DNA from: an uncultured bacterium
GTDB lineage: Bacteria > B130-G9
Reading direction: 5' to 3'
DNA: 64,000 nucleotides
Assembly: GCA_964480475.1 (NCBI GenBank)
Contig: CAYZPW010000001.1
Coordinates: forward strand, 16,262 to 80,261
Shown piece by piece: positions 8,278-51,369 of this stretch; within the stretch, counting starts at the first letter, position 1; every line of letters starts with the position of its first letter. The notes under the pieces were generated by a model. The model had not been told where the DNA came from. It did no database searches and saw nothing but the letters and a program-made list of their open reading frames with translations. The position numbers and the translations under genes are program-made.

Positions 8278-8376
8278 TGCCCCTTTTCCCTCTCTCGTCT
8301 CTGTGTCTCTGTGGTTGATCCACATCATCCTTGAGCTTCCCTCATTTTTCGTGTTCATTCGTGTTCATTCGTGGTT
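8246..8376. repeat. long inverted repeat: 21-bp perfect arms (aaccacgaatgaacacgaatg / cattcgtgttcattcgtggtt) around a ~89-bp spacer
   Basis: Arms read directly at 8246-8266 and 8356-8376. A related motif, accacgaatgaacac, sits at 4617-4640 after the DUF3795 gene. Confidence 0.55.
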
Positions 8377-8388
8377 GAATCAGCTCTT

Positions 8389-9654
8389 ATGGATCACGTG
8401 GTATTATCTGATGTGCGGTCACAACCCATCCGCGTGATGCGGGTGATCACACAGCTCTCGCGAGGGGGCGTGGAGGCGAAGCTGGCCGAGCTCTTGCCTT
8501 TGCTCAGGCAGCAGGGCTTTGATGTCTCCGTGTGCTGCATCAAGGAGGCAGGGTCGCTGGCTCATCGGTTCGCCGAGGCGGGGATACCGGTTCACGTCCT
8601 GCCTGTTCGATCGCGGCTGCATCCGATCGACATGCTGCGCCTCGCCCGGTTCATCAGGCAGGAGCGGCCCGACATCGTGCACACGCACATGTATGCGGCG
8701 AATACGACAGGGACGATTGCTGCGCGGCTCGCGAAGACGCCGGTTATCGTCGCAAACGTTCACAACGTGGGGAAGTTCGCGTCGCGGCGCCAGGTTTTGC
8801 AGGACAGGATATTGTCCCGGTTCAGGGATGCGACGGTCTGCGTCTCAGAGCGGGTCAAGGCGGATTACCTTGAGGCGACAGGGCTTTCGGACGAGAAGGT
8901 AATGGTGATCTACAACGGTGTGGATACTGAGAGGTTCAGGCCAAGTTCGCAGGCTGGAAAGCCCGCCCCACACGGCCAACTGCCAACCGCCAACGGCCAA
9001 CCGATCAGGCAGGCTAGAAAGCCTACCCCACATGGGCGGGCTGGAAAGCCCGGCCCGCACTGTGAGCTCCGGAGGGAACTCGGAATCGGGGAGGACGAAC
9101 GCGTTCTGATTTCTGCCGGGCGCCTCATCCCGCAGAAGTCACCGGACCTTCTGATCGCTGCGTTCAAGATAGTCCACAAATCGCTCCCAGACACGCGGCT
9201 GTTGGTTCTTGGGACGGGCGAGCTTCGCGACGATCTTATGGCCATGACCGATAGGCTTGGACTTTCAGCGAGTGTTATCTTCGCGGGCTTTCGAGAGGAC
9301 ATTGCCGAATGCCTTGCCGCTTCGGACGTTTTTGTGTCATCCTCTGTTAAGGAGGGCTTCTCGAATGTGCTGCTTGAGGCGCTGGCCTCTGGCCTTCCGG
9401 CGGTGGTTACGGATGTCGGTGGGAATCGGGAGGCGGTCCGCGATGGTCGGGAGGGCTTCTTGTGTGGGCCAGGCGCAGAGGAGTTAGCCGAGTGGATTAT
9501 GCGCATTTTGGGCGATTCGGGCCTTCGAGAGCGCATGTCAAAGAATGCTAGGGAGCGAGCGATGGAGTTTAGTTTGGAGCAGATGGCGAACCAGACGGCG
9601 GCGTTTTATCACCGTCTTTTCTCGCAGAAGCGAGGGAGTGTAGCCGATGAATAA
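8389..9654 (+). CDS. glycosyltransferase family 4 (GT-B fold)
   Basis: N-terminal GT4 domain. C-terminal EGFSNVLLEALASGLPAVVTDVGG motif (the E-x7-E region). The inter-domain linker is made of in-frame 26-bp tandem repeats. The start is uncertain (alternative GTG at 8371 or ATG at 8437). Confidence 0.8.
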   Translation: MDHVVLSDVRSQPIRVMRVITQLSRGGVEAKLAELLPLLRQQGFDVSVCCIKEAGSLAHRFAEAGIPVHVLPVRSRLHPIDMLRLARFIRQERPDIVHTHMYAANTTGTIAARLAKTPVIVANVHNVGKFASRRQVLQDRILSRFRDATVCVSERVKADYLEATGLSDEKVMVIYNGVDTERFRPSSQAGKPAPHGQLPTANGQPIRQARKPTPHGRAGKPGPHCELRRELGIGEDERVLISAGRLIPQKSPDLLIAAFKIVHKSLPDTRLLVLGTGELRDDLMAMTDRLGLSASVIFAGFREDIAECLAASDVFVSSSVKEGFSNVLLEALASGLPAVVTDVGGNREAVRDGREGFLCGPGAEELAEWIMRILGDSGLRERMSKNARERAMEFSLEQMANQTAAFYHRLFSQKRGSVADE

Positions 9655-11663: not shown

Positions 11664-13805
11664 TCAGCCCACTGACTTCGAACTTTGGGCTTTGGACTTG
11701 GACTTCGGACTTTTCTTGAACTTCAAGGAGACCCATGTCTTGAAAACGAGTGGCCAGGCCCTCAGATTGAAGACAAGATTGACCGGCAGGATGCACTCCC
11801 ACGTGCAATAGCAGTTGGAGGTCTTGATGAAGTCGAAGAGTTTTTCGGCCCGCTCCGACTTCAAAAGGGCTCGGACGTCATAGCCGTTCTGCCTTAGATT
11901 GCCGAAGCTCTTGTTGAGTATCTCACACGGATAAACGTCGCCCGTGTCCCCGATGACAATCACTTTCTTTCCTGCTACGCAAGGATACGTCATCTTACCG
12001 TTTCTGGCGGCCATGGCATTCTCTTCCGGGGCCAGACGCATTAGGACCTCCTTCATTCCGGCGAATGGGTGCTTGTCCCGGCTCTTGAATTGCTCATCGA
12101 GGCGCAGCTTCGTCATCGCCTCGTAATAGTCCTGCATAGTGACATTTATCGCTCGCTTGTCACGAGCGTCGCCTCTGACGATGTTGATCGAGTGCTTCAG
12201 GCCAAGGTCGCAGGCGATGAACTCATGCAGCGGGACCATTTGGTCCTTGTTGAAGTAGGTGTAAGTTGTGCCCACTCTCAGGCCAAGGTTGGGATATCTG
12301 TCAGCGAGTGGCATCAGATGTCTTAATGTCTTAACTGCCTTTTCAAAGCCGTCTTTGACACCCCTTATCATATTATGCGTCTCTGGGAGGCCATCGAGCG
12401 TCACCTGAACCATGAGAAATGAGTGGGGGCAGCGGTTAAGTATCTCCCTGGCAATGTCAACTGTCTTCTCAGGCAAATAACCGTTCGTGTGCATGCAGAT
12501 AATATGGGCGCCGTTGTGCCTGTAGAAAGTCTCGCAGATGTCCGGAATGTCGTCCCTGAGCGTTGGCTCGCCGCCGGTGATGGCGAGGTACTTGATATGA
12601 CCGAGGCTCTTAGCGATCCTCTGGACCTCATCGAGCGACAGCTCCTGCCGCTTGAGCGACTCGTCCTGCCTCCTCCAGTTGAAGCAGTAGTTGCATTTGT
12701 TGTTGCACCTTGCGGTGACGAAAAGGATAACGTAGGGCGGCATACGGCTGAGAAGAAAGCGCACGTTATCAATTGGAGACAACAACGCCATGAGCGTTCG
12801 GGAAGCAATATGCCGCACGAGTGCAAGCGACACGCCAACCCCGACCGTCAGGTAGTAAAGCGTGTTGCAGATAACGGAATAGAAGGCGAAGACTATGTGC
12901 TTCCGTTTGGCTACCCAGAAGTAGAAATGATAGTTCATTACTACGGTCAGCGTGAACAGGGCGAGCGATGCCCAGAGCAGCGCTGGGTATAACGGTGACA
13001 AGAGGAGCGCTGCAAGCATCAAAACGGCGAGCATGACAGATATCTGCTCTTGTGGTCCGTTGGGATTGTCTCTTCTGCCTCGCGCCCGCAGAAAAGACCC
13101 CAGGACCCTATTGCTGCGCTTGAACCACTGCTTGAGTTTGGGAAACAGTGGCAGGTAATGGTGCCGGAGCTTGATGTCCGTGAAAAAAACAACCTTATGA
13201 TGCTTGATTAGGCGCAACCCCAGATCATAATCCTCGCCACCGATCCCTCCCAGCGACGAATCAAAGCCCCCCACCTCCGCGAACACATCTCTTTGTACGG
13301 CGCCTCCATAAGAAGGGAAGCAACAACTGAGGTATCGCGTCCTTGCCCGGTGCCTGCCCTCGAAAAGATAGACGCATTTCAGACCAATGAACGTTACACC
13401 CCATCGCTTGTCGTCAAGAGCGCCGGACATAACGCCGCCAGCGACTCTGATCTTGGGGTCCGACTCGAACGCGGCCGCAAACCTCCTGAGCGTATCCGGG
13501 GCAGGGACGATGTCCGAATCCATGAACACCAATATCTCGCCCTTCGCCTCTTCCGCCGCTCGGTTTCTCGCCTTCGCCACGCCCAAGTTGCGAGGCTGTT
13601 TTATGAGCCTCACGGGATACTGCTCGGCAATGTCTCTCGAAGCGTCCGTGCTACAATCGTCAACGACGATCACCTCGAAATCGGGATAGTCCGACGCGCA
13701 CGCGGCCTGGAGCGTCTCGCCCAGGGTCCTCTGGGCGTTGTAAACCGGAATAATCACCGATACTGACGGGTGCCTTCTCTCCGCCCGAGAATAATCCTCA
13801 CTCAT
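11664..13805 (-). CDS. fusion protein: GT2 glycosyltransferase (GtrB/DPM1-like) + transmembrane segments + radical SAM/SPASM domain
   Basis: N-terminal VSVIIPVYN...VVDDCSTD...DSD (GT2 DxD motifs). Two to three transmembrane helices. Then CNNKCNYC (CxxxCxxC) and a C-terminal Cys cluster CVAGKKV...YPCE...CYCTWEC (SPASM-like). AAAGGAA RBS before ATG 13805. Confidence 0.75.
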   Translation of the reverse strand: MSEDYSRAERRHPSVSVIIPVYNAQRTLGETLQAACASDYPDFEVIVVDDCSTDASRDIAEQYPVRLIKQPRNLGVAKARNRAAEEAKGEILVFMDSDIVPAPDTLRRFAAAFESDPKIRVAGGVMSGALDDKRWGVTFIGLKCVYLFEGRHRARTRYLSCCFPSYGGAVQRDVFAEVGGFDSSLGGIGGEDYDLGLRLIKHHKVVFFTDIKLRHHYLPLFPKLKQWFKRSNRVLGSFLRARGRRDNPNGPQEQISVMLAVLMLAALLLSPLYPALLWASLALFTLTVVMNYHFYFWVAKRKHIVFAFYSVICNTLYYLTVGVGVSLALVRHIASRTLMALLSPIDNVRFLLSRMPPYVILFVTARCNNKCNYCFNWRRQDESLKRQELSLDEVQRIAKSLGHIKYLAITGGEPTLRDDIPDICETFYRHNGAHIICMHTNGYLPEKTVDIAREILNRCPHSFLMVQVTLDGLPETHNMIRGVKDGFEKAVKTLRHLMPLADRYPNLGLRVGTTYTYFNKDQMVPLHEFIACDLGLKHSINIVRGDARDKRAINVTMQDYYEAMTKLRLDEQFKSRDKHPFAGMKEVLMRLAPEENAMAARNGKMTYPCVAGKKVIVIGDTGDVYPCEILNKSFGNLRQNGYDVRALLKSERAEKLFDFIKTSNCYCTWECILPVNLVFNLRAWPLVFKTWVSLKFKKSPKSKSKAQSSKSVG

Positions 13806-14117
13806 TTCCTTTTGAGGCCGTCCGGCAAGATTCTTGTGCTTAAGTGTCCAATTGATCCGAAACGCGGGTAGGCTACCACGTGGGTGAGGTGCTTGCAAGG
13901 TGGCAGGCCGGGCTTGCGTCTAGGTCGAGGGTGAACCCTATTGGTCGTGGCTTCAGCCGGGCGATTGAACGAGGCGTTTCCCCACCATTAGATCGCCCTG
14001 CTAAAACAGGAAGCTAATACAACTGGCCGTGACAATTGCCGCGTTCAAACGCTGCAATAATCACAAACATGTCCTTACCTACGATTGAGGATCACCCCCT
14101 GCCGCCTGGCCTCGGGG

Positions 14118-14352
14118 TAAGTCTTTCCCCAAAACTGAAGCTCCAATCGCTCAATTACTGCCTATATAGGCGCATTAAGAGCACTCACGAAGTGAGATAC
14201 GTCTGTTTCGGAAAAGAGGCCCTGCGATTAGCTGTCTCGCACTCGCCAGGGACAGGACTCACGCTTTCTGGCTACTATCGGTCTGTCCCCTTTCGCCTTT
14301 CCCCCTTTCCCCCTTTTGTCCCGTTTCCCCAATGGGGAAACTCCTCCTCAGG
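14118..14352 (+). repeat. MITE-like ~235-bp interspersed repeat, copy A
   Basis: About 80% identical over ~225 bp to 61824-62047. Ends in a polypyrimidine tract plus a gtttccccaatggggaaac hairpin. ORF 14036..14488 across it is probably spurious. Confidence 0.55.
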
Positions 14353-14478
14353 GGTCTTGGCAGAGGCGAAAGAGGTAAATAGGTCAATCCCGGACGTAGA
14401 GAAAGACACGCGAGAGACTAGTTGCAGAGAGGCCTTGCCCGCAACGGCTGGGCGACATCGGAGATGTGAGCTGCGTGG

Positions 14479-16380
14479 CTACAGGTAGTTTAGAAGCGTA
14501 ACTTGATTCAGTATCCTGGCCCCGATCGAAAGTGACGTTTGGTAAGCCAGCTCCTCCTGCTCGAGGCGCGCGATGGCCTCGGGTAGGTTCACGCCTTGCT
14601 GCACCTCAAGCTGCTCCTTCATCAGGGCCTGATAGTCGAGCAGATTCTTCTGAACCATCATCATGTATTGCAGCGTTGAGCCGGCCAGCGCCTCGGTCTT
14701 GATGAGATGATTTATGTTGCCGTCGAGCGCTACATGCTCGCTTCTGTCGTGCCTCAAATCAAGTGTGAACGAATCGCCCGCCTGAAACTCACCCGGGACA
14801 CCGGAGAATGAGACAGAGACGCCGTCTGCGATGAGGATGCTCTCGCCCGAGGAGTAGGCTTCGCCGACGTCGATCGTCTTGATGACCTCCCCGGTCGCCT
14901 GGTCCGTCACCGTGATCGTTACGCCCTCGGTCTCGCCCAAAAGGCCGCCTGTGCTGCCCACCGTGAAGACCCAGGTCGCGTCAATGTCCCCGGTGTAGTA
15001 GCCATCTCTGCTAACCGAAACGCTGCTCTCTCCATTCCAGTCGGATGGATCGAATATCTTGGACTGGACCACGCCCGCGTCTATGTTGCGCGCCAGGCGA
15101 TTGAGCGTGTCCAAAACGGCGACGCCATCCGTCTCTCCGCTTGATACACCGAAGAAGCTCTGAAGCGTGTTTGCGCCGGAGCTCAAGTCGTTCAGGACGA
15201 TCTTGGCATGGAGGCCCTCCGAAAGCGGGCGAAGCCGCAGGCGCCCCTGCGAATCAAAGCTCGCCTGTATGAAGACCTCGTCGTCGTATTGATCGCTTTG
15301 GCCGATGAACAGGCCGGCCTGATCGAGCAGATTGAGAACGTCGGACTGCGTGTATGACGTCCCCTCTGTAAGTGTGATTGTCTTTGTCGTCGCTCCGTCC
15401 GAGATTAGAAACTCTATGTCCCCGCCGCCGGCGCTGACGGGCGTCCCACGAACCGCATCAATGATCGCTGTCCCGATGACTGTGTCGGCCTGCAAGAACG
15501 TGTGGCCCGCCACGTTGATATCGACTATCAGGTCATCTCCGATCTTCGACTTGATGGCGCCGTTGTTGCCGACGTAGGAAAAGCTGCCCTGCGGGGTGTA
15601 CATGACGCGGAAGCTCTGCGTGCCTGAGGCCATCGTTGCCGACGTCTCGATCCGAAGGCCGCGGCCGGTATTGACTGTCTCTCCCAGGGTAACCGTTATC
15701 GAGTTGGCCAGGTGGTTGTAGCTCGAGAAATAATGCGTGTCGTCCCTTGAGTTGTCGTCGATCTGGACCGACGAGCCGTCGGCCTCCTTCAGCGAGACTG
15801 TGGCGCCTATACCGTCGGACGTTATCTCAACAGTATAAACAGAGCGCTCCAGTTCCGGCAGGTCTGAGAACGGCGAGCCGATCGTAATCGCATCGATGCC
15901 ATCCGGCAGCGAGCCGACGAGTGTGATGTCCCGCTCTAACCTGACAAAGGGCTGAGTGGATGTCCGCGTGCCGGAGAACATGTATCGGTTGTTCTGCGAG
16001 CGGTTTGCCAGCGAGACGAGCTCGTCAATGTAGCCGCTTACGGCCTGCGAAAGGCCACTTCTGGCATCGTCGGACGTCGTGTCACTCAGGGCGAACATGG
16101 CCTTTTCGAGCGCCTGCTGCACCAGGCCCGACGCCTGGTTGATGCTGTCCTGGGTCGTCTGAGACCATGAATACGCCGTGTCGGCGTTCGCGGAGTACCT
16201 CTCAATTCTGCTGATCGCCGCCTCGTATCGGTGGATTCTTGCGAGCCCGCTTGGGTCGTCTGAAGGCTTGTTGACCCTCTTGCCAGACGCGATCTGAGCG
16301 GTCAGTTCGCTCAGACGTTCGTATTGCAGCTCCGCCCTCGTGAGGAAGTTCTTAACCATCATGTTGCGAGTAACCCGCAT
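14479..16380 (-). CDS. flgL: flagellar hook-associated protein 3 FlgL, long form
   Basis: Flagellin-like N-terminal helix (NFLTRAELQYERL). Conserved C-terminus (LSIGARILNQVTLLNYL). Immediately downstream of flgK. Confidence 0.75.
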   Translation of the reverse strand: MRVTRNMMVKNFLTRAELQYERLSELTAQIASGKRVNKPSDDPSGLARIHRYEAAISRIERYSANADTAYSWSQTTQDSINQASGLVQQALEKAMFALSDTTSDDARSGLSQAVSGYIDELVSLANRSQNNRYMFSGTRTSTQPFVRLERDITLVGSLPDGIDAITIGSPFSDLPELERSVYTVEITSDGIGATVSLKEADGSSVQIDDNSRDDTHYFSSYNHLANSITVTLGETVNTGRGLRIETSATMASGTQSFRVMYTPQGSFSYVGNNGAIKSKIGDDLIVDINVAGHTFLQADTVIGTAIIDAVRGTPVSAGGGDIEFLISDGATTKTITLTEGTSYTQSDVLNLLDQAGLFIGQSDQYDDEVFIQASFDSQGRLRLRPLSEGLHAKIVLNDLSSGANTLQSFFGVSSGETDGVAVLDTLNRLARNIDAGVVQSKIFDPSDWNGESSVSVSRDGYYTGDIDATWVFTVGSTGGLLGETEGVTITVTDQATGEVIKTIDVGEAYSSGESILIADGVSVSFSGVPGEFQAGDSFTLDLRHDRSEHVALDGNINHLIKTEALAGSTLQYMMMVQKNLLDYQALMKEQLEVQQGVNLPEAIARLEQEELAYQTSLSIGARILNQVTLLNYL

Positions 16381-16391
16381 CGCGAATCCTC

Positions 16392-18098
16392 CTAGCTACC
16401 CAGCTTCTCAAGCACTGTGTCGATCATTGAGTTGACTACTGATATGAAATGAGCAGTGCTGTTGTATGCCTGCTGATACATGACGAGGTTTGCGAGCTCC
16501 TCGTCAACCGATACACCGGATGTCTGCTCCCTGAGGTTCTCGTAGAAGTCGAGGTTGTCCATCTCGTGTTTGACCTCGAAATCCGCCGTCGTTGTCTGAT
16601 TGCCCGCCCGCGTGGCCATAGAGTTGAAGAACTCGGCGAACGTCGCGGTCTCATCGTTCAATAGCAGCTCGTCAGCAAGCATTGAGAGCGAAAGCGCGTT
16701 CTCGCCGTCGCCCGCGCAGAACGTGGCCCCGGCCGCGATGAGCGTCGGGTCCTCAGCGATCGCATCAGCGACTTGGATGTCGTAAGAGTCGAATCCCGTG
16801 AGCAGGACGTTGACCCCAAGCTGCGCAAGTACACCGCCCGTGTCCTTTCCTACAACGAACTCGTGATCGCCAACGCCGGTGATCTCTAGTCTGTTCTGAG
16901 AGACGCTTGCCGAAAGGAGCGTCGTTGACGAGTTGATCATGGCAACCACGTCCTGAAGCGAATCGACGTCCGGGTCAACCGTAACGGTAACGCTCTGAAC
17001 TATCTGGCCGCCCTGGGTGATCGTGATGTTGAAGGTCCCTGCCTCAGAATCGTAGGCCAGGTTTGACCCGCCTTCCAGGTTCAGGGCGTCATTTAACGCG
17101 ATAGTCGAGCTGTACACCGCATAGGCGCCGGTCACGCTCGTCTGATCCCGGAGCGCAAAGCCCATGCTGTGCGCGCGATTGACCGTCTTGAGCAGAGTCG
17201 TGGTCAGCTCATCGAGTTCCTCAACAAAGGAGACGATCATCTCGTCCCGGGCCTCGAGGTTCGCGCCGAGCTTACCACCGTCTATAAAGGACGTTATGTT
17301 GTGCTGAGAGTTGCCGTCGTCCCAATAGATGTCGTAGAAACTGTTGTTATTAACGTTGTTGCGGCAAACGAGCGTGCTGCGCTGGTCCCTACTGACGAGC
17401 ATGCGATTGTCCCCAACGAATATCGTTACGTCCTCGATCATGTCAAAATCAATGAGTTGGGAAAGCTGGTCAAGCGCCTCGGCCCGGCGGTCTGTTAAGT
17501 CGTTGGCGTGCGTCATCTCATCGCCGTAACTGGCCGTTATGCCTATATTGAGCTCGGCGATCTCCGTCGTAAGCTGATTGATGCGCTCAACGATCTGGGC
17601 AACCTCGTCGTTGGCAAACGTGCGCTGGTTGCGGAACTTGGCATTCTGGGCGCGAATTGCGCTCGTTAGTCGCTCGGCGGTCTGGGCTAGGTTCTGCCTC
17701 TCGGCCGCGCCTTCCGGGCCATTGCCCACCTGTTCAACGGCCTGCCAGAACTCCGTCAAGGACTCGCCCAGGTGCTGCGCGTTGGCCGAGACAAGCGATT
17801 GCTCAACCTCCGAGATGAACGAATACTTGCGCTCGGAATAGGCCAGAAGTCCCTTGTGAAGATTCACCTTGGAAAGCGCATACGTGTCGCGATACTGCAC
17901 AATCTGGGCAATAGTCGCGCCGGTCCCGACCTGAAGCAGGCCCAGGCGACTCGGAGTCGAAGACGATAGAACCGCCGCCTGCCGCGTATAATTCGGCGTG
18001 TTGATGTTCGCGATGTTGTGCCCGCAGATGTTGATAGCTGTCTGCTGTGCAGCGAGAGACCTAACGCCGATGTTCAGAATCGAAAAGATGTTGGTCAT
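16392..18098 (-). CDS. flgK: flagellar hook-associated protein 1 FlgK
   Basis: N-terminal SILNIGVRSLAAQQTAINICGHNIANINTPNYTRQ and C-terminal LVMYQQAYNSTAHFISVVNSM are FlgK signatures. Confidence 0.85.
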   Translation of the reverse strand: MTNIFSILNIGVRSLAAQQTAINICGHNIANINTPNYTRQAAVLSSSTPSRLGLLQVGTGATIAQIVQYRDTYALSKVNLHKGLLAYSERKYSFISEVEQSLVSANAQHLGESLTEFWQAVEQVGNGPEGAAERQNLAQTAERLTSAIRAQNAKFRNQRTFANDEVAQIVERINQLTTEIAELNIGITASYGDEMTHANDLTDRRAEALDQLSQLIDFDMIEDVTIFVGDNRMLVSRDQRSTLVCRNNVNNNSFYDIYWDDGNSQHNITSFIDGGKLGANLEARDEMIVSFVEELDELTTTLLKTVNRAHSMGFALRDQTSVTGAYAVYSSTIALNDALNLEGGSNLAYDSEAGTFNITITQGGQIVQSVTVTVDPDVDSLQDVVAMINSSTTLLSASVSQNRLEITGVGDHEFVVGKDTGGVLAQLGVNVLLTGFDSYDIQVADAIAEDPTLIAAGATFCAGDGENALSLSMLADELLLNDETATFAEFFNSMATRAGNQTTTADFEVKHEMDNLDFYENLREQTSGVSVDEELANLVMYQQAYNSTAHFISVVNSMIDTVLEKLGS

Positions 18099-18117
18099 TG
18101 AGGCGCCTCCTCCACAG

Positions 18118-18636
18118 CTACAACGTTATCGAGGACCTGGACTCCTGCACGCCAGCTCTTAACCGACCATTCGCGGCATAGGTTGACGGCGGCTTGTCGT
18201 CCTGCGTGATCGTTCTGACCATGTGGTCAACGTCTTCCATGGATTTTCTTAGCAGCTCCTGGGTCCTCAGACCGGATTCGCCGGCGCTATTGGCCGCAAG
18301 CCTGTGCTCTTCGAGCCGCCGAGATAGGATACACGCCCTCTCGTCGTCATTTGTGAGAAGGAAGCCCGGCAGCTGATTCAGGGTGACGCTGTCGCGATCG
18401 ATTCCCGCGGCGCTGCAAGCTGCCGTCATCGCCCGGTCCGTCTTTTGTGAGGCGGCCGAAAGTTCGTTCTGGAGCCCGCGCTTCTTCTTAACCAAACGCC
18501 GCTGCGCATCCACGTCGCCGTTGATCACGAGCTCACGCTCGGCTGTGAAAAGCTCCGCAAGGTTGTTCAAGATTGCGGTCTGGGCCTCAATCGACTCGGC
18601 CAGTTCGTCAAAAAAGGGGTAGATGGAGGGTAGCAC
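18118..18636 (-). CDS. flgN: FlgN-like flagellar export chaperone
   Basis: 172-aa helical protein located between flgM and flgK. Assignment rests on position and size; similarity is weak. Confidence 0.45.
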   Translation of the reverse strand: MLPSIYPFFDELAESIEAQTAILNNLAELFTAERELVINGDVDAQRRLVKKKRGLQNELSAASQKTDRAMTAACSAAGIDRDSVTLNQLPGFLLTNDDERACILSRRLEEHRLAANSAGESGLRTQELLRKSMEDVDHMVRTITQDDKPPSTYAANGRLRAGVQESRSSITL

Positions 18637-18747
18637 TTTGTCTGCTCCTTTCGTCCGTAGGTTTGAGACTTCAGTTGGGCTTCGGGACGTTAGGAACCGG
18701 CTTTTTGTGCTAAACCGCCGATGAGAACGCTAGCGCTGAGCCTGAAA

Positions 18748-19074
18748 TCAGACCTTGATGCTGATACTGCTCAGCATCTTCTCGGCAATCTTCTCGGCGT
18801 CGGGGTTGTACTGACCGCTCTCGATCAGCTTGGAAAGCCTATCAACCTTCTCCTGGCGAACGTCTGGCAGCTTGTCAAGGGCGCTTTGAGCCAGTGCGCG
18901 GAGCTTGGCCTCACCAGAGATAGAGACCTTGTCCGACACATCTTCTCGCACTCGCGCTGAGACATCCTGCGCCTTGTCAACCTTACCTGCCTTCTCAACT
19001 TCCGCCTGTTTCTGGGTGTCAACTTTCCGATAAGAATCTACTGCCTGGCTTGGTGCGTTGCCTTCAATCTTCAT
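18748..19074 (-). CDS. flgM: anti-sigma-28 factor FlgM
   Basis: About 108 aa. Conserved C-terminus (KVDRLSKLIESGQYNPDAEKIAEKML). AGGAGG RBS. Confidence 0.7.
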   Translation of the reverse strand: MKIEGNAPSQAVDSYRKVDTQKQAEVEKAGKVDKAQDVSARVREDVSDKVSISGEAKLRALAQSALDKLPDVRQEKVDRLSKLIESGQYNPDAEKIAEKMLSSISIKV

Positions 19075-19131
19075 CTTAAATCCAACCTCCTGCACTTATC
19101 CGGTGCCACCACATCCATACTACCTGCGGCC

Positions 19132-19608
19132 TCATCGGTAAGTCAAGCCAGCATCTTTAGCAGATTCTTCACCCGTCCCATTAGCCGATTCCATCTCTCC
19201 GTTGTCCGACTGCTCCTCCATTGAGTTGATTAAACTTTGAAAAATCATATCTGAAAGGCCTATGCCGCCACCCTCACAGGCGGCCTTGGCCACCTCGTCA
19301 TCAAACATCGACATATATATCCTCTTCGCTGGGGTCTCGGGCATGAGCGACGACTTCTGCACCGTCTTTCTCATCTGCTTCAGAAGGTAGCCCAAAAAGA
19401 TCGCCTCGAACTTCTGACAGGCGTCGCGAAGCTCCTCGCGCTGGCTCGCATCCATCTTGTGAGCATGCCCCTTTGAGGCGTCAACTTTCGCCTTTGCCTG
19501 CTCCGCTTGCTGCATCAGTCGCTGCCAGCTTGCGTCCGATGCAAGCCTATTGAAGTTGATTGAACCGCCACTGAGAAGGTCGCTTGGCATTCTAAGTAAT
19601 CCCTTCAC
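19132..19608 (-). CDS. flgJ: flagellar rod-binding protein (FlgJ N-terminal domain type)
   Basis: CQKFEAIFLGYLLKQMRKT matches the rod-binding domain. No muramidase domain is present. Confidence 0.55.
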   Translation of the reverse strand: MKGLLRMPSDLLSGGSINFNRLASDASWQRLMQQAEQAKAKVDASKGHAHKMDASQREELRDACQKFEAIFLGYLLKQMRKTVQKSSLMPETPAKRIYMSMFDDEVAKAACEGGGIGLSDMIFQSLINSMEEQSDNGEMESANGTGEESAKDAGLTYR

Positions 19609-19629
19609 AACTCCGTATAGATACGCTCA

Positions 19630-20772
19630 TCAGATTATCTTGAGCTCCGCCCGCAATGCCCCGGCGGATTTGATCGCCTGAAGTATCGCTATGAGGTCCC
19701 TCGGCGAAACACCGATCGCGTTCAGGCCCGTTACGACGTCCTTGATCGTTACCGCTTGTTCCACCAAGAGCAGCCGCTGCTCCTCCTCGCTCACCTGGAT
19801 CGTTGTATCTGGTGTAACCGCCGTTTGGCCGCCCGACTCCGGATACGGCTGGCTCACGTCGAGTTCCGTCTTGATGACAACGCTGAGGCTCCCGTGCGCA
19901 ACCGCAACTGTGTCAACTTGAACGTCGCGGCCAATGACAATCGTGCCCGTTCGCTCATCAATCACTACGCGGGCGGTCGTGTCGGGCAGGACCTCGATGG
20001 CCTCCAGCCGTGATATGAACTCTACTATCTTCGCCCGCCGCTCGACAGGGACCGAGACCTCAACCGACCCCGCGTCCACCGTCCTGGCCAAATCGCCCAA
20101 CTTACTATTTATCGCCTCGGCGACCCTGGCAGCGGTCGTGAAGTCCTCCTCGCTCAACTTGATCGTCAAGCTGCTTCTGGAATTGACATTCGTCTCCAGG
20201 TTACGCTCAACGGTCGCGCCGTTCGGCACCTTGCCGACCGTGGGGTGGTTTTTCTGCGCCTTGGCGCCCGCGCCCGATGCCAGAAAGCCGCCAATTGAAA
20301 CGGGCCCCTGCGCCACCGCGTATATCTTGCCGTCTGGGCCCCGAAGCGGCGTCATGACCAGCGTCCCGCCCTGAAGGCTCGAGGCGTCCCCGAGCGATGA
20401 GACCGTCACGTCGAGCCTTGAGCCCGACTTCGCAAACGCCGGGAGACTCGTCGTTACGATCACGGCCGCGACGTTGCCGACCTTTATTTTCTGCGCGTCG
20501 GCCCGAATCCCGAGCCGGTCGAGCATATTGGCAAGGCTCTGCATCGTAAACTTCGTGCCGGATGCGTCGCCCGTGCCGTTGAGGCCTATGACGAGACCGT
20601 AGCCGATGAGCTGCTGCGTCCTGATCCCGTGTATCGACGCGATATCCTTCAGCCTCACCAGGCCCCCGCAGTCCCCGGACGCGCTGGCGAAGAGGACCGC
20701 GACCGTGAGGACCGCGCCCAAAAGCCCTCGAAAACCCAACTTGAAACCTGGAACTTTGAACTTGGAACTCAT
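19630..20772 (-). CDS. flgI: flagellar P-ring protein FlgI
   Basis: Signal peptide, then RLKDIASIHGIRTQQLIGYGLVIGLNGTGD, typical of FlgI. Confidence 0.9.
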   Translation of the reverse strand: MSSKFKVPGFKLGFRGLLGAVLTVAVLFASASGDCGGLVRLKDIASIHGIRTQQLIGYGLVIGLNGTGDASGTKFTMQSLANMLDRLGIRADAQKIKVGNVAAVIVTTSLPAFAKSGSRLDVTVSSLGDASSLQGGTLVMTPLRGPDGKIYAVAQGPVSIGGFLASGAGAKAQKNHPTVGKVPNGATVERNLETNVNSRSSLTIKLSEEDFTTAARVAEAINSKLGDLARTVDAGSVEVSVPVERRAKIVEFISRLEAIEVLPDTTARVVIDERTGTIVIGRDVQVDTVAVAHGSLSVVIKTELDVSQPYPESGGQTAVTPDTTIQVSEEEQRLLLVEQAVTIKDVVTGLNAIGVSPRDLIAILQAIKSAGALRAELKII

Positions 20773-20796
20773 CTTATTGCTCTATCCTCTTCTAAT

Positions 20797-21564
20797 TCAG
20801 AACGGCCAAACCAGAGATATAATGCGGCCAGCCCAGCCCGCTCGCTGCTCCTCTGAGACTTGTCCCTTGCCGCCGTAGAGTATTCTTGCGTCAGCAATCT
20901 TCGTGGAGGCAATTGTGTTGTCGGCCTGAATATCGCGCCTACGGATGATGCCGCTCACGAATATGGTCTCTTTCTCGCTGTTGATCCTTATCTCTCGCTG
21001 ACCGAGTATGACGAGATTGCCGTTGGGGAGCACCCTAACGACCCTTGCGCTGACCGTCGTGATGATCTTTCCTGAGCGAGCCGTCTTTCCGTCCCCGCTG
21101 AACGTCTTGTCGAGGTTCGCGGACAACAGGCTTGATGCGTCAGCACCTTCCGGGAACCTGAACCTACTGACCAAGGCTGCCTCGTGCCCAAAAAAAGTCG
21201 GGATGCCGGCCTTGATCTCGGATTTCTTGGCACCCGATGTCGAGGCGCTGTTCTCTGCCGTGGTGCTCTCGACTATCAGGATTGTTATGATGTCGTTCAC
21301 GCCCCTTGCCCTCGAATCGCTGTAAAGGACGCCAAACGGGAGCTGATCGTTCCAGAGCGAATCGGGCGCGAAGCCATCCCGCTCCGCTGGCTGCGCAGCC
21401 GGCAGCGCCGGGAAGTTCTGCGGCGGCATCGGCTCCGAAAAGGCCGAGTGCCGTTTGGTGAACGAACAGCCGGCGTAAAGGAACAACAGGGCCGAAATGC
21501 CCAGTAGAATGCCGATGATCTTAAGAGTAAGTCCTTTCAATTGCTCCCTCGCTTTCATTTGCAA
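20797..21564 (-). CDS. flgH: flagellar L-ring lipoprotein FlgH
   Basis: Lipobox LYAGCS. FlgH-like motif SLWNDQ, then ITILIVESTTAENS...VRVLPNGNLVILGQREIRIN. Confidence 0.85.
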   Translation of the reverse strand: MQMKAREQLKGLTLKIIGILLGISALLFLYAGCSFTKRHSAFSEPMPPQNFPALPAAQPAERDGFAPDSLWNDQLPFGVLYSDSRARGVNDIITILIVESTTAENSASTSGAKKSEIKAGIPTFFGHEAALVSRFRFPEGADASSLLSANLDKTFSGDGKTARSGKIITTVSARVVRVLPNGNLVILGQREIRINSEKETIFVSGIIRRRDIQADNTIASTKIADARILYGGKGQVSEEQRAGWAGRIISLVWPF

Positions 21565-21570
21565 TCGCGA

Positions 21571-22296
21571 TTATCGAGAAGCGCCCACGAGGACCAGCAC
21601 CGTGCCGTCCTGCTGCACAACCCCATAAACCGTTTTCTTTGAAGCGGTATTCTGAACTGGAATCACGTCGCCTGTCCGGCCGTCCTTGAGCGCCACTCCC
21701 AGCGCGGTGACGCGAAGCGATTTGATCCGCGCCTCAAGCCGGACCACGGTTCTCTTCTTCACTTTCGGCGGCTCAACTAACATATCCGTGGTGAGCATCT
21801 TGCCTTTGGGCAGCCCACGTTTTAACATCTTGCCGACCGCGAGATTGACGTCAGTTACGGGACGCTTCGAGGAATTGCCCCCAATCTCCCGCTCCCTAAC
21901 TAGCACGTCGCCTGGTCCAATCACGGAACCAGTTCTCATTGTCTGAGCCGCGCACACGACGGTCGTTCGCGCCGAGACATTCGCCGTCACCCAGTATTTC
22001 TTCTTCACTCCATCGTCCCCAAAGGCCGTTACAGCGAACGACAGCCGACCCAGCTCTCTGGCCGAGTTCTGCTGATGGATTTGCAGGCGGCATTTTTCGC
22101 CGGGCACGCTTATCTCGGGGACGCGGACGAACTCAATGGTAACCTCATCCCTTTCAAGATTGCTGTTGCTCAGAATCTTCTCGCGGACAATCGACTCGAT
22201 CCTACTTTGGGACACAACAGCCGCCTGGGCCGTGGCGACGAGCAGCAAGGCAATACATAAAGGCAAGGTATAATCGGTCAGCTTCAATCTGAACAT
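21571..22296 (-). CDS. flgA: flagellar P-ring assembly chaperone FlgA
   Basis: Signal peptide plus an SAF/FlgA C-terminal domain (GDVIPVQNTASKKTVYGVV). Confidence 0.75.
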   Translation of the reverse strand: MFRLKLTDYTLPLCIALLLVATAQAAVVSQSRIESIVREKILSNSNLERDEVTIEFVRVPEISVPGEKCRLQIHQQNSARELGRLSFAVTAFGDDGVKKKYWVTANVSARTTVVCAAQTMRTGSVIGPGDVLVREREIGGNSSKRPVTDVNLAVGKMLKRGLPKGKMLTTDMLVEPPKVKKRTVVRLEARIKSLRVTALGVALKDGRTGDVIPVQNTASKKTVYGVVQQDGTVLVLVGASR

Positions 22297-22307
22297 CCTG
22301 CCGCCTC

Positions 22308-23093
22308 CTATCGCTTCAGGTTGTTTGCCTGGCTCATCATCGAGTCCGCCGTCTGAATCGACTTGGCGTTGAGCTCGTATGCCCGCTGGGTCATGATCAT
22401 CTGAACCATCTCATCGACCACAGAGACGTTCGACATCTCCAGGAAGCCCTGGGCTATGTTGCCTCTGCCCTCCTCCCCGGGGCTTCCCGTTGTGGGGACC
22501 CCGGACGAATCCGTCTCCTGAAAGAGGTTCCTACCTACCGCCTTCAAGCCACCCGGATTTGAAAAAAGGGCCAGCTCCATCACGCCGACCTCCGACGGTG
22601 AGGTCTGCCCCGGCTGAAGCACCGAGACGGTGCCATCCGACTCAATCGAAATCGAAAGAGCGTCGGTCGGTATAACTATATCGGGCGAGAGTCTGTAGCC
22701 GTCCGGCGTTACTATTGAGCCAGCGCTGTCCAGCTGAAACGAGCCGGCCCGCGTGTAGGCCATATCGCCGGTCGGCAGCGTAACCTGGAAAAAGCCCTTA
22801 CCCTCAATGGCGACATCCAGCGGGGAGTTAGTGTTCTTGAGGCTCCCCATGCTGAACTCGCGCTGTGTCGAGACCGGCCTGACGCCGTGCCCCAACTGTA
22901 TCCCGCTGGGTACCTGCGAGCCTGCGATCGGGGCGCCGGGTGAGCGGAGCGTCTCATACATGAGGTCTTGAAACTCCGCTCGTGACTTCTTGAAACCGCT
23001 CGTATTGACGTTGGCAAGGTTGTTAGCAATCGTATCAATCGTCAGCTGCTGGGCCTGCATACCAGTTGCAGACGTCCACAGTGTTCTCATCAT
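22308..23093 (-). CDS. flgG: flagellar distal rod protein FlgG
   Basis: N-terminal [28 protein letters not shown] and C-terminal [21 protein letters not shown]. Confidence 0.9.
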
Positions 23094-23146
23094 CTTATCC
23101 TCCGAGCATACCTATCAAACATTCACTTATTTTGACTATTGCTGTG

Positions 23147-23893
23147 TTATCTTAAGTCAGGTAGCGTTGTGATCATTTTGCCTACGGTATCGTCCAGAAT
23201 CGCGCGGATGCTCTTCTGGTGAGATTCATACCGCCTCATCCCTTCGATCATCGAGACCATCTCCTCGATGATGTTGGCGTTGGAAGATTCTAAAAACCCC
23301 TGGTGCACCTCCGCGTTTGGCGCGTCTTCTGGTGGGACCTCGTCCGTCCTCGTGACCCAAATGCTAGCGCCGGCCTTCTCGAGAACGGACTTGTCGTCAA
23401 ATGTGACTATCCGCAGGCTGCCGACCGAGTTTCCGTCCGCGAAGACATCCCCGTTCGTATCGATCCGTATCTCGGCGGCCTCTGGGACCGTGAGCTCGCC
23501 TTGCCCGGCCATGACGGGAAGGCCGTTTTGGTCCAAGAGTTCTCCGCCAGAGCCGATCCTGAAGTTGCCCGCCCTCGTGTAGCCTTGTTTGTCGCCGAAC
23601 TTGACGACGAAGAACCCGTCGCCCTGTATAGCGAGGTCCAGAGGATTGTCCGTCTGCCTGAGCGGACCCTGCGCAAAGTCGGTCGCGGTTCCACCAATCA
23701 GCACACACGACGGCGCAAGCGGATCGTAGGAGGTGGACGAATCGGGGGCTGCTTCCTTGGTCAGAATCCTAAAGAACGGCGTGTCCTTCTTGTAGCCGAC
23801 AGTGTTTATATTGGCGAGATTATTCGATCGTATCTCGTGCGCCCTCGCCTCGGTCAGAAGACCCGACGCCGCCGCGTAAAAGCCCTTAATCAT
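23147..23893 (-). CDS. flgF: flagellar proximal rod protein FlgF
   Basis: N-terminal AAASGLLTEARAHEIRSNNLANINTVGYKKD; conserved rod-protein C-terminus. Confidence 0.85.
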   Translation of the reverse strand: MIKGFYAAASGLLTEARAHEIRSNNLANINTVGYKKDTPFFRILTKEAAPDSSTSYDPLAPSCVLIGGTATDFAQGPLRQTDNPLDLAIQGDGFFVVKFGDKQGYTRAGNFRIGSGGELLDQNGLPVMAGQGELTVPEAAEIRIDTNGDVFADGNSVGSLRIVTFDDKSVLEKAGASIWVTRTDEVPPEDAPNAEVHQGFLESSNANIIEEMVSMIEGMRRYESHQKSIRAILDDTVGKMITTLPDLR

Positions 23894-41225: not shown

Positions 41226-42722
41226 TCAGGTCGTGTCCCCTCTTTGCCCGAATGAACCCCTGAAGAGGTATTTGAAGAAGGTCTTGGCGGCCTTCTTGGT
41301 CCGACTTATCTCGCTTGGATGTCGAATCATCTGAAGGGCCTTCCGAGCGATATAGCTCGGCCTCAGGTAGAACTTCTGACGCGCCTCGTCACACCACTTG
41401 ACCAGCTCCTTGCCCGAGAAGTCGCCCGTCCTGACAACGCAGTTGTGCAAACCCTCCTCCGTCAGCCAGTCGGAGTATCTATCGACGGTCAGAAAGCCAC
41501 CTGCCTGATACTCGTCGTAGAGCTCTGTCCCAGGATACGCCATTATCGGATAGAACTGCGCGGTGTCAGGCGACAGTTCAAGGGCCAGATCAAGCGTTTT
41601 TTGCATCGTCTCGCGCGTTTCTCCTGGCAGGCCAACCATAAAGCATCCGTGCACCAGAATCCCCGCGCGCCTCGCGTCATCGGCGAAGGTGTGCATCATC
41701 TGAACCGTCGTCCCCTTGTGAATAGCATCCAGAAGCGCCTGAGAGCCGCTCTCGAAGCCGACGCAAACCATCCGGCACCCCGCCATCCTCATGGCCCTCA
41801 GTGACTCGTAATCAACGTCGGCCCGGCAGTTTGCTGTCCACGGAAACCTAATGCCGCGCCTCTTCACAAGTTCACAGAACTCGATGCAACGTGTCTTGTC
41901 CGCCGGAAGCGTGTCGTCCTCAAAGAAGATCGACCTCGCGTTCGGGAAGTGCTGGATCACGTATTGCATCTCCTCGACAACGTTCTCCGGCGAACGAAAT
42001 CGATAGCGCCGCCCGTGCATCGTCTGCGGATAAACGCAGAACGTGCAGCCGTTGGGACAGCCCCGGCCAGCGTTGACCGTTACCATAGGATACAGGGCGT
42101 TGGGGTTGAAATAGTCCTCTATCCGCAGGAATCTGTTATAAATTGGCGCCACGAAAGGCAGAGCGTCCAGGTCCTCGATTGGCTCTCTGCTTGCCGTTCT
42201 CACAAACTCGCCATCGTTGAGATATGCAACGCCCGGTATCGCCTCGAGCTCCATCTCGCCCGCGACCCATCTCGCCAGGTCCAAAACGGTATAGTCGTAC
42301 TCGCCGATGCAAATGCCATCCAGCGCGTCCGTGCTTCGCAGAGTCTCCTCAGGCAGCGCGGAGGGATGCGTCCCGACCGCAAAGACCTTGGTCTTGATCC
42401 GCGACTTGATCGCCTCGGCCACCTTGAGGTCGTTTTCGAGGCTCGGCGTCACTACATCCATTATCACCAGGTGAGGCGCAAAACCGGAGACCTTGCTGAG
42501 AACCTCTTCGAGCGCAATTCCCGCTGCGGGCGCGTCCCAGAGCTCCGCCTGAACGCCTGCTTCCAGAAGAACGCCAGTCGCGTGAGCCAGCCAAATCGGG
42601 AAGTAGATCGTCCCGCTCTTGGTTACAGCTGGGCTGCGCTGCGGCCGCGAGAACTTCTTGAAATACGGCGCATTCAGCACCAGGACCCGAAGGTCATTAA
42701 GGTTCTTCACATTCCTCTTCAT
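41226..42722 (-). CDS. B12-binding-domain radical SAM protein
   Basis: N-terminal cobalamin-binding-like domain. CPNGCTFC (CxxxCxxC). Confidence 0.75.
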   Translation of the reverse strand: MKRNVKNLNDLRVLVLNAPYFKKFSRPQRSPAVTKSGTIYFPIWLAHATGVLLEAGVQAELWDAPAAGIALEEVLSKVSGFAPHLVIMDVVTPSLENDLKVAEAIKSRIKTKVFAVGTHPSALPEETLRSTDALDGICIGEYDYTVLDLARWVAGEMELEAIPGVAYLNDGEFVRTASREPIEDLDALPFVAPIYNRFLRIEDYFNPNALYPMVTVNAGRGCPNGCTFCVYPQTMHGRRYRFRSPENVVEEMQYVIQHFPNARSIFFEDDTLPADKTRCIEFCELVKRRGIRFPWTANCRADVDYESLRAMRMAGCRMVCVGFESGSQALLDAIHKGTTVQMMHTFADDARRAGILVHGCFMVGLPGETRETMQKTLDLALELSPDTAQFYPIMAYPGTELYDEYQAGGFLTVDRYSDWLTEEGLHNCVVRTGDFSGKELVKWCDEARQKFYLRPSYIARKALQMIRHPSEISRTKKAAKTFFKYLFRGSFGQRGDTT

Positions 42723-42756
42723 TCAACGTCACCAACCCGTGTGGGGTAAGCTTTCC

Positions 42757-51342: not shown

Positions 51343-51369
51343 AAACGAACCTATTTCGCTGGGTTCAGA

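Follow-up and report, generated by a model that had tools for sequence, protein, structure and literature searches.

The window analysed here, a stretch of 64,000 nucleotides from an uncultured bacterium, carries a gene whose product joins a family 2 glycosyltransferase (GT2), a membrane module and a radical SAM domain with a C-terminal cysteine region. On one side of this solitary gene is a flagellar operon, on the other a convergent pair of genes for a histidine kinase and a GT4 glycosyltransferase. The features are as follows (L and P numbers denote loci and proteins).

11664..13805, (-) strand: GT2-TM-radical SAM fusion gene, 713 aa, stop codon at 11664-11666 (open reading frame with an RBS-like site)
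13806..13935, (-) strand: conserved 5' leader/promoter region, near-identical to that of L089, of uncertain membership in the system
13101..13769, (-) strand: GT2 (GT-A fold) catalytic domain, aa 13-235, with conserved D49-D50, D96-S97-D98, E191-D192 and H215
12750..13100, (-) strand: membrane module, aa 236-352 (from Kyte-Doolittle hydropathy, AlphaFold helices and Foldseek)
12171..12737, (-) strand: radical SAM core, aa 357-545, with a GGEP motif at aa 411-414
12684..12707, (-) strand: CX3CX2C motif (CNNKCNYC), aa 367-374, read from the sequence; predicted site of the SAM-cleaving 4Fe-4S cluster
11766..12008, (-) strand: auxiliary-cluster (twitch/SPASM-like) domain, aa 600-680 (from PF13186 and invariant cysteines)

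The frame is uninterrupted over 11664..13898 (-), and from the ATG at 13805 it reproduces exactly the coordinates of the preliminary description made from the sequence alone. AAAGGAA, an RBS-like site, precedes this ATG, and the closest homologues begin at the same point. As that description had proposed, all three modules (Pfam matches PF00535, PF04055 and PF13186) lie in one genuine 713-aa polypeptide, and the missed stop or frameshift that it had suggested looking for at the junction is absent. Public data contain a protein (P0001) that is 100% identical to the fusion, and full-length proteins with 72-77% identity are present in other samples. Three independent JGI metagenome assemblies (orthologous loci L089-L091, reached via the cluster member P0121) agree in encoding a protein of 713 aa that falls in the 90%-identity cluster of the fusion. 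An assembly or annotation artefact, in which a sequencing error joined two neighbouring genes, is a general possibility whose one specific argument is that both halves occur as stand-alone versions in other genomes; it is effectively refuted by the continuous frame, by these three assemblies, by dozens of full-length homologues that align unbroken through the GT2/radical SAM junction, and by an AlphaFold model that is confident along the linker helices. In the 5' region, 125 nt are nearly identical to the leader of L089 and the remaining intergenic region diverges; a search of the conserved 125-nt leader for riboswitches or leader RNAs gave no Rfam match.

Domains of the fusion protein

In the N-terminal part, PF00535 (Glycos_transf_2) matches aa 16-174 with 127.7 bits (cutoff: 23.3), which together with the GT-A fold assigns the domain to GT2. 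Both the DXD motif and the acidic catalytic base expected of GT2 enzymes are found: among 31 aligned fusions, D50 and D96 never vary and D49 and D98 almost never, and E191 of GGED is nearly invariant in a 14-sequence alignment. E191-D192 is likely the catalytic-base motif; the residue roles are drawn by analogy from further GT2 enzymes (PMC12595478).

The membrane module starts with the end of an amphipathic interface helix, followed by a strongly hydrophobic hairpin (aa 250-268 and 275-301, Kyte-Doolittle peak 2.3) and by a third helix of 49 residues (aa 304-352) that is less hydrophobic (peak 1.7). AlphaFold gives these helices pLDDT values that are for the most part >90. If the third helix spans the membrane, the radical SAM domain would be extracellular, which would count against the scheme proposed below. 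A Foldseek alignment to the membrane enzyme PcManGT (6YV7) spans 348 columns, and the closest folds of the GT2-membrane part are PcManGT, hyaluronan synthase (HAS) and BcsA. The GtrB/DPM1-like arrangement first assigned to this region is not upheld, as the closest sequence and structure matches are not GtrB, DPM1 or ArnC, and the fold is PcManGT- or HAS-like. We conclude that the fusion carries an inverting GT-A enzyme of family 2 with intact DXD and E-D motifs followed by a hydrophobic hairpin, and that this layout is the 'minimal cellulose-synthase-like' arrangement of PcManGT (Pcal_0472, PDB 6YV7-6YV9), a membrane-bound mannosyltransferase from Pyrobaculum calidifontis that depends on Dol-P. 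The two proteins share 20-22% sequence identity, and the donor and acceptor specificity of PcManGT is not transferable to the fusion. PcManGT is reportedly GDP-, Dol-P- and Mn-dependent with three TM helices (a 2020 study in J Mol Biol), and we know of no radical SAM partner for it.

The radical SAM half is matched by PF04055 (Radical_SAM; aa 363-497, 70 bits against a cutoff of 29.5). Its C367, C371 and C374 are invariant in all alignments and G411-P414 is invariant too, as expected for the radical SAM superfamily, and its partial TIM-barrel fold matches SkfB, BlsE and MoaA. The SPASM-like cysteine cluster noted earlier holds in part: PF13186 (SPASM) matches aa 609-668 marginally above its cutoff (23.5 versus 21.5 bits), but the invariant C-terminal cysteines are exactly four (C609, C627, C665 and C667, in fused and stand-alone members alike) rather than the full seven. 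They are arranged as C609-X12-G622-X4-C627 followed by C665-X-C667; C671 is present but variable. The seven-cysteine SPASM motif (CX9-15GX4C-gap-CX2CX5CX3C-gap-C) was not found, the family alignments containing no further conserved cysteines. A twitch domain is expected to supply three to four cysteine ligands for a single cluster, which the four invariant cysteines fit. Aligned with the family profile, BtrN matches over the C-terminal region only (E = 5e-4, marginal), in a part of BtrN that we take to be its twitch domain. Judged by its cysteine pattern, the C-terminal domain therefore looks more like a one-cluster twitch-type domain than a full SPASM domain; the radical SAM half as a whole is one with a canonical CX3CX2C cluster motif and one predicted auxiliary cluster site of four invariant cysteines. 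For the twitch/SPASM dehydrogenases BtrN and anSME (the latter with two auxiliary clusters and a peptide substrate), E-values against the family are marginal (5e-4) and imply no likeness of reaction; structural likeness of the twitch/SPASM kind does not predict the chemistry of radical SAM enzymes.

Fused and unfused relatives and their genomic neighborhoods

Genomes were scanned for the family with a five-sequence radical SAM alignment as query. Many lower matches (about 25% identity, in Bacteroidales and others) were left out; the generic ITGGEP motif probably drew them in from other radical SAM families. Among the 150 best-scoring representatives at 50% identity, at least about 63 are full-length fusions, found in bacteria and in Asgard and other archaea, and unfused gene pairs come in addition; the family also occurs in Bathyarchaeia and DPANN archaea. 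With its radical SAM half, the fusion falls in an uncharacterised family of more than 1,000 clusters, whose members bear only generic names. No curated family (NCBIfam equivalog) matched, the NCBIfam scores of both halves lying far below cutoffs, and a literature search (including bifunctional, polyprenyl and GT-C contexts) found no description of a GT2-radical SAM architecture. The architecture thus appears undescribed, as was first thought, but it is not unique to the window, being uncommon but recurrent.

One fusion has the two halves in reverse order (P0263), and five others (P0153, P0159, P0227, P0232 and P0266) have no detectable hydrophobic segment. Stand-alone radical SAM members often adjoin a GT2-TM gene: unfused pairs are seen in L096 (GT2 of 356 aa, then radical SAM), L097 (GT2 of 337 aa, then radical SAM) and L020 (radical SAM, then GT2), and L012 has radical SAM, GT2 and PMT_2 in succession. 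Four loci (L013, L015, L016 and L095) have stand-alone members with no GT2 nearby. In a rough neighbour-joining tree, fused and stand-alone forms are intermixed. Because of the fusions, the reversed order, the adjacent pairs and the interleaving in the tree, we consider the two enzymes to be functionally coupled.

The surroundings of the family differ from lineage to lineage. In the relatives, genes of envelope glycan synthesis dominate, among them Wzx, amino-sugar genes and genes for B12-radical SAM enzymes, small GT2s and PMT_2 GT-C enzymes. L092 has a Wzx-type flippase together with a GT4 and a GDSL lipase, and L009 an NDP-sugar dehydratase with a sugar C-methyltransferase. L094 and L097 each carry a trio of GFO/IDH oxidoreductase, DegT aminotransferase and hexapeptide acetyltransferase; L020 has a carbamoyltransferase and L005 a pyruvyl transferase. 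PMT_2 adjoins the fusion in L001 and L003 and lies near the family radical SAM gene in L012 and L094; GT2 and PMT_2 likewise co-occur in three-component glycosylation systems, which consist of a polyprenyl-phosphate GT2 (GtrB, ArnC, DPM1), a flippase and a GT-C (ArnT/PMT). B12-radical SAM genes are neighbours in L003, L005, L007/8, L013, L015, L092, L094, L095 and L097. The one in L003 may belong to adjoining fosfomycin-like phosphonate genes and was not counted as strong evidence.

In the window, the genes next to the fusion (flagellar operon, histidine kinase and GT4) are not the conserved partners of the family, and the candidate partners (a B12-radical SAM enzyme, a weak PMT_2-like protein and a small GT2) lie 28-38 kb away. 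A role in flagellar glycosylation was considered, the gene following flgL on the same strand, and rejected as a general explanation: no flagellar neighbours were found beyond the close relatives of the window.

Proposed role and alternative readings

We lean, with modest confidence, towards reading the fusion as a membrane-anchored two-enzyme polypeptide of cell-envelope glycoconjugate biosynthesis, which glycosylates a lipid-linked acceptor and then tailors the sugar by radical chemistry. The suggestion that the radical chemistry acts on a glycan or glycolipid intermediate was part of the preliminary description and is favoured by the context, namely the fused or adjacent GT2 and the PMT_2, Wzx, amino-sugar and NDP-sugar genes; a peptide precursor and an RRE-like N-terminal extension are both absent. 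In the proposed scheme, the GT2 at the cytoplasmic face of the membrane would use a nucleotide sugar to glycosylate an acceptor anchored by a lipid. By analogy with the Dol-P-dependent PcManGT, this acceptor is most probably a sugar or glycan linked to polyprenyl phosphate, but it may also be a membrane lipid or something else; we infer it only from the PcManGT-like fold and the neighbouring genes. The tethered radical SAM domain would then cleave SAM and take a hydrogen atom off the newly attached sugar, and the fully ligated auxiliary cluster would pass an electron in a redox-type tailoring reaction. Candidates for this reaction are those of the BtrN type (C-OH oxidised to a keto sugar, or epimerisation) and of the BlsE type (a uronic acid decarboxylated to a pentose), as well as dehydration and ring contraction. 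In many genomes, HpnJ/BchE-like B12-radical SAM enzymes may act on the same intermediate, and the product would be flipped and handed by a GT-C enzyme (PMT_2) to its final acceptor.

There are precedents for parts of this scheme. In the Arn pathway, ArnD deformylates undecaprenyl-phosphate-L-Ara4FN, i.e. a sugar is tailored on its lipid carrier. In blasticidin S biosynthesis, the glycosyltransferase BlsD is followed by BlsE, a radical SAM decarboxylase acting on the sugar. BlsE matches the family profile weakly and in the core only (34 bits), and BlsD and BlsE are separate soluble enzymes whose substrate is a nucleoside and not a membrane compound.

A rather unlikely alternative is that the GT2 glycosylates a membrane lipid alcohol directly, like HpnI with bacteriohopanetetrol or as proposed for archaeal GDGT, and that one or more radical SAM enzymes rearrange the sugar to a carbocyclic (cyclitol-/calditol-like) head group that is ether-linked or acid-stable in another way. 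In the HpnI/HpnK/HpnJ pathway, which leads from bacteriohopanetetrol glucosamine to the cyclitol ether, a GT21-like membrane GT2 glycosylates the lipid, and rearrangement of the sugar is the role proposed for a radical SAM enzyme (PMC13459092); such ring contraction after glycosyl transfer is documented or proposed for HpnI/HpnK/HpnJ and for the calditol synthase Cds (PMC13459092, PMC9092360, PMC9385802). HpnJ-like B12-radical SAM genes accompany the family in many loci, HpnJ being the best or second-best NCBIfam match of all four B12-radical SAM proteins tested (L094, L095, L007 and L097). The GT2 of the window weakly matches HpnI and also has GT21-type Pfam matches. The archaeal fusions L007/L008 have a UbiA prenyltransferase gene nearby, and the presence of the family in Asgard, Bathyarchaeia and DPANN archaea also speaks for this reading. 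These scores are, however, far under the equivalog cutoffs (HpnJ, TIGR03471: 83-232 bits against 577.6; HpnI, TIGR03472: 41.5 bits against 310). The HpnJ-like protein is moreover a neighbour of the B12 type, unlike the fused domain, which is of the twitch/SPASM type without a B12 domain; the surveyed loci showed no squalene-hopene cyclase, no other hpn genes and no tetraether genes; and PMT_2, Wzx, GT4 and NDP-sugar genes indicate carrier-based glycan assembly.

We regard it as improbable that the fusion makes a polysaccharide processively, in the manner of hyaluronan or cellulose synthase, with the radical SAM domain modifying the growing polymer, e.g. by epimerisation. The fusion does match PF13632 (Glyco_trans_2_3, 46 bits), and PgaC and NodC are among its NCBIfam matches, but two clearly hydrophobic helices and one weaker helix (with no hydrophobic segment detectable in several members) are too few for a translocation channel, a recognisable QxxRW motif was not seen in the alignment, and the closest match, PcManGT, is a non-processive Dol-P-dependent transferase.

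It is very unlikely that the fusion is a maturase of a ribosomal peptide (RiPP) or cofactor, in which the radical SAM domain cross-links or otherwise modifies a peptide and the GT2 glycosylates it, as MftC and MftF do for mycofactocin. MftF is the best NCBIfam match of the glycosyltransferase half (112-114 bits) and the peptide maturase WgkB that of the radical SAM half (72-75 bits), and SkfB, SuiB and the sactipeptide synthase 5wgg are among the best solved-structure matches. Every score is nevertheless far under its family cutoff (280 for MftF; MftC reaches 52 bits against 265), and four of the seven usual SPASM cysteines are present. Stand-alone members begin about 20-40 residues before CX3CX2C and therefore have no space for an N-terminal RRE. 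When all open reading frames of 20 aa or more in the 673-nt gap upstream were compared with a 42-aa open reading frame upstream of the L004 homologue, none was conserved, and neither the window nor its relatives have a conserved small ORF upstream or an RRE domain that could stand for MftA/MftB. Glycan genes dominate the surroundings, and precursor peptides, proteases and transporters are absent.

Returning to the membrane-anchored glycoconjugate enzyme, we raise the tentative possibility that the GT2 and twitch-type radical SAM pair, often with HpnJ-like B12-radical SAM enzymes, represents a widespread and previously unrecognised radical chemistry on sugars bound to membrane lipids or polyprenyl carriers in anaerobic bacteria and archaea (including Asgard and DPANN). 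Reactions of this kind could turn a lipid-linked uronic acid into a pentose by decarboxylation independently of O2 and NAD, contract the ring to give a carbocyclic head group, or C-methylate the sugar. If true, radical chemistry on a lipid-bound sugar would yield envelope glycolipids or glycan residues of a new class. Most known radical SAM enzymes with sugar substrates come from soluble antibiotic pathways (BtrN, DesII, BlsE, AprD4 and GenK), and HpnJ and Cds are among the few proposed for lipid head groups, their mechanisms still being proposals. With a radical SAM domain tethered to a membrane glycosyltransferase, the system is well defined and tractable, and the fusion itself indicates the reaction that supplies the substrate. 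The family spans many uncultured bacterial and archaeal phyla. Its product could point to new sugars or lipids in the envelopes of anaerobes, new lipid biomarkers and new radical carbohydrate chemistry, and the identity of that product would let more than 1,000 proteins labelled 'radical SAM protein' or 'glycosyltransferase' be annotated.

The two convergent neighbours of the fusion gene are a PAS histidine kinase and a GT4, as first read. As for the linker of tandem repeats ascribed to the GT4, the sole detection by Tandem Repeats Finder in this gene is a 29-nt array of 7/14-nt units, and the translation of the repeat region contains three GKPxPHG-like motifs.

Reading frame and domain anatomy

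The minus-strand ORF of the GT2-membrane-radical SAM fusion (11664..13898) is open throughout, and the start ATG at 13805, which has AAAGGAA just 5' of it and lies at the same position as in the closest homologues, gives a 713-aa protein. The preliminary description had claimed one ORF at 11664-13805; these coordinates are exact, and three Pfam domains are found in the single protein (the helices lie between the two enzymes):

aa 16-174, Glycos_transf_2 (127.7 bits, cutoff 23.3)
aa 250-268 and 275-301, two strongly hydrophobic helices
aa 304-352, long, less hydrophobic helix
aa 363-497, Radical_SAM (70 bits, cutoff 29.5)
aa 367-374, CNNKCNYC
aa 609-668, SPASM (23.5 bits, cutoff 21.5)

A missed stop or frameshift, a concern raised at that stage, is excluded by a 100% identical protein in public data, by three independent JGI assemblies (orthologous loci L089-L091, with a 713-aa protein of the same 90%-identity cluster and the same synteny), and by dozens of homologues that align through the junction of the GT2 and radical SAM parts without a break; there is practically no chance that the fusion is an artefact.

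In the GT half, every one of 31 aligned full-length fusions keeps D50 and, within the DXD motif D96-S97-D98, also D96; D49, D98 and H215 are nearly invariant, as is E191 of the GGED motif in a 14-sequence alignment. Invariant in the radical SAM half of the fusion alignments are C367/C371/C374, GGEP (aa 411-414), R417, D419, N441 and R544. The SPASM-like cysteine cluster proposed earlier holds as a Pfam match, but not as the seven-cysteine motif: exactly four C-terminal cysteines (C609, C627, C665, C667) are invariant, and they stay so once stand-alone relatives join the alignment. Since their pattern, CX12GX4C ... CXC, matches the SPASM signature in its first half and then adds a CXC, we read them as the predicted ligands of one fully ligated auxiliary 4Fe-4S cluster in a twitch-type domain. 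Consistent with this reading, the family profile aligned with BtrN only over the C-terminal region (E 5e-4), a stretch that is presumably the BtrN twitch domain. The protein apparently combines a catalytically intact, membrane-anchored GT2 with an intact, tethered radical SAM enzyme that has one auxiliary-cluster site.

The AlphaFold model, built from a 31-sequence alignment, is confident (mean pLDDT 87.2, pTM 0.73). Foldseek gave the N-terminal half PcManGT, a Dol-P-dependent membrane mannosyltransferase, as its top match (6YV7; 348 aligned columns, E 3.9e-13); the next-ranking membrane enzymes are hyaluronan synthases and BcsA. The earlier label "GtrB/DPM1-like" therefore needs correction, and the modelled GT2 half belongs to the GT2 branch that is membrane-integrated and cellulose-synthase-like. 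By sequence, no solved protein was found close to the radical SAM half (best, SkfB core, 66 bits).

Coupling of GT2 and radical SAM genes

A word-indexed search found fusions in only about 15 clusters, all generically named, among them a Coatesbacteria MAG and the Asgard archaeon Candidatus Sigynarchaeum. By exhaustive profile search, about 63 of the 150 best representatives (50% clustering) are full-length fusions (670-790 aa), and about 50 others, 343-395 aa long, stand alone and match the radical SAM half only (380-455 bits). The profile of this half reaches 1,065 clusters at E <= 1e-40, every one named 'radical SAM protein' or similar.

Besides the GT2-TM-radical SAM order of the window, we found GT2-radical SAM proteins without a detectable hydrophobic segment (P0153, P0159, P0227, P0232, P0266) and one in reverse order, radical SAM-GT2-TM (P0263). 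These two forms argue that both catalytic domains would lie on the same, cytoplasmic side, and the way in which the sequence places positive charges around the helices fits with this. Stand-alone radical SAM genes often have as immediate neighbour a 337-370-aa GT2 (GT21 matches, plus Glyco_trans_2_3 in L020), the counterpart of the GT2-TM part of the fusion. Arrangements by locus are:

L096, GT2 then radical SAM, 23-nt gap
L097, GT2 then radical SAM, genes overlapping
L012, radical SAM, GT2, PMT_2
L020, radical SAM then GT2
L094, GT2 two genes upstream of radical SAM

A rough neighbour-joining tree computed for the radical SAM halves, without support values, has fused and stand-alone forms interleaved, which points to repeated fusion or fission. 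GT2 and radical SAM are linked evolutionarily in many lineages, embedded in glycan-assembly loci. That the architecture is not a described one is borne out: no description was found in the literature searched, and no NCBIfam equivalog was reached by the fusion or by any of five stand-alone members (best 60-115 bits vs cutoffs of 170-650). The family of radical SAM proteins, the systematic way in which it is coupled to a PcManGT-like GT2, and the membrane-tethered fused form are uncharacterised and, as far as we found, undescribed; each component belongs to a known kind, and precedents exist for the pathway logic.

Neighbourhoods and proposed chemistry

Recurrent neighbours across the surveyed loci are genes for envelope glycans:

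PMT_2-type GT-C enzymes (L001/L014, L003, L012, L094; weakly L032)
B12-binding radical SAM enzymes (L003, L005, L007/8, L013, L015, L092, L094, L095, L097)
small GT2s of about 235-240 aa (L094, L097)
amino-sugar trios of GFO/IDH oxidoreductase, DegT aminotransferase and hexapeptide acetyltransferase (L094, L097)
NDP-sugar dehydratase and sugar C-methyltransferase (L009)
Wzx, GT4 and GDSL lipase (L092)
carbamoyltransferase (L020), pyruvyl transferase (L005), UbiA (L007/8)

HpnJ is the best or second-best NCBIfam match, far under cutoff, of the B12-radical SAM enzymes tested from L094, L095, L007 and L097, and is neither for that of L013.

We lean somewhat towards a general model in which the GT2 glycosylates a lipid-anchored acceptor and the radical SAM enzyme then tailors the sugar. 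The GT2, with PcManGT as nearest fold, would act at the inner membrane face; the radical SAM domain would take a hydrogen atom from the newly added sugar, for a redox-type tailoring via the auxiliary cluster; and in many genomes B12-radical SAM partners, flipping and a GT-C enzyme would come next. On equal footing, the reaction could be an oxidation or epimerisation, the decarboxylation of a uronate, a dehydration or a ring contraction. BlsD/BlsE is a direct precedent for a GT acting first and a radical SAM enzyme then acting on the sugar (PMC3715490); at the lipid level, the proposed analogues are HpnI/HpnJ and Cds (PMC13459092). A variant acting on a lipid head group is unlikely, and a processive synthase is improbable. 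Still less credible is a peptide maturase, since neither a conserved small ORF nor an RRE-type extension turned up in the window, the relatives or the stand-alone members. The fusion itself is a solid finding, and it gives a testable starting point for work on membrane-level radical chemistry of carbohydrates.

Two of these loci and one protein have further features. L005 (500-16000) has at least nine radical SAM genes packed unusually densely around the fusion homologue (several SPASM-type, three B12-binding). The same stretch codes for an AMP-binding enzyme, a DUF362 protein and the pyruvyl transferase, and has two very short ORFs of 46 and 51 aa. In L003 (1-9870), an early-fosfomycin-pathway-like phosphonate cluster adjoins the PMT_2 gene and fusion homologue; its genes (fused cytidylyltransferase-PEP mutase, TPP-dependent decarboxylase, Fe-alcohol dehydrogenase, B12-radical SAM, CDP-alcohol phosphatidyltransferase, LPG_synthase_TM protein) suggest a phosphonate-decorated lipid or glycan. 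The protein P0105 (669 aa) joins polysaccharide deacetylase (PF01522), GT2 and radical SAM, a set recalling HpnI (GT), HpnK (deacetylase) and HpnJ (radical SAM); within P0105, the radical SAM portion lies at a greater distance from the family of the window fusion.

Surroundings in the window

The fusion gene is solitary: a flagellar operon lies upstream, and on the other side it converges with a PAS histidine kinase and a GT4, the sensor kinase and GT4 named in the preliminary description. This synteny is common only to close relatives. The remaining cassette components (B12-radical SAM, weakly PMT_2-like protein, PglF-like dehydratase, small GT2) lie 28-38 kb away. Genes of these regions are:

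8371-9654, plus, GT4 glycosyltransferase with low-complexity linker
14479-23893, minus, complete flgF-flgG-flgA-flgH-flgI-flgJ-like-flgN-flgK-flgL operon, directly upstream of the fusion gene
41226-42722, minus, B12-binding radical SAM
43217-44641, plus, MiaB-like radical SAM
44846-47053, minus, 735-aa membrane protein, sub-threshold PMT_2 match
48248-50233, minus, PglF/WbpM-like Polysacc_synt_2 dehydratase
50641-51342, minus, PilZ protein
51370-52059, minus, small GT2, 229 aa

The stretch 41226-52059 is a second glycan-type gene set, whose component types are those that other genomes have around members of the radical SAM family. Of the tandem repeats claimed for the GT4 linker, three GKPxPHG-like motifs are present, but Tandem Repeats Finder gave only a 29-nt array of 7/14-nt units (8975-9003); the GT4 has 427 aa vs 412 aa in the L089 orthologue, which may be repeat-length variation.

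FlgI is 55-59% identical to Desulfobacterota-type MAG proteins and at most 59% to any named organism's protein; in L089-L091, the flgJ-like gene and flgN have flgM between them. In the intergenic region from flgL to the fusion gene (13806-14478), where no Rfam match or convincing ORF was found, the 125 nt beside the start codon are nearly identical to L089, and the window has about 370 nt extra, including a purine-rich GGGGAAAGGGGGAAAGGCGAAAGGGGA stretch. A 1,778-aa ORF (31866-37202, minus), with weak matches only, to fibronectin type III and CarboxypepD_reg-like domains, probably encodes a large surface or adhesin-like protein.
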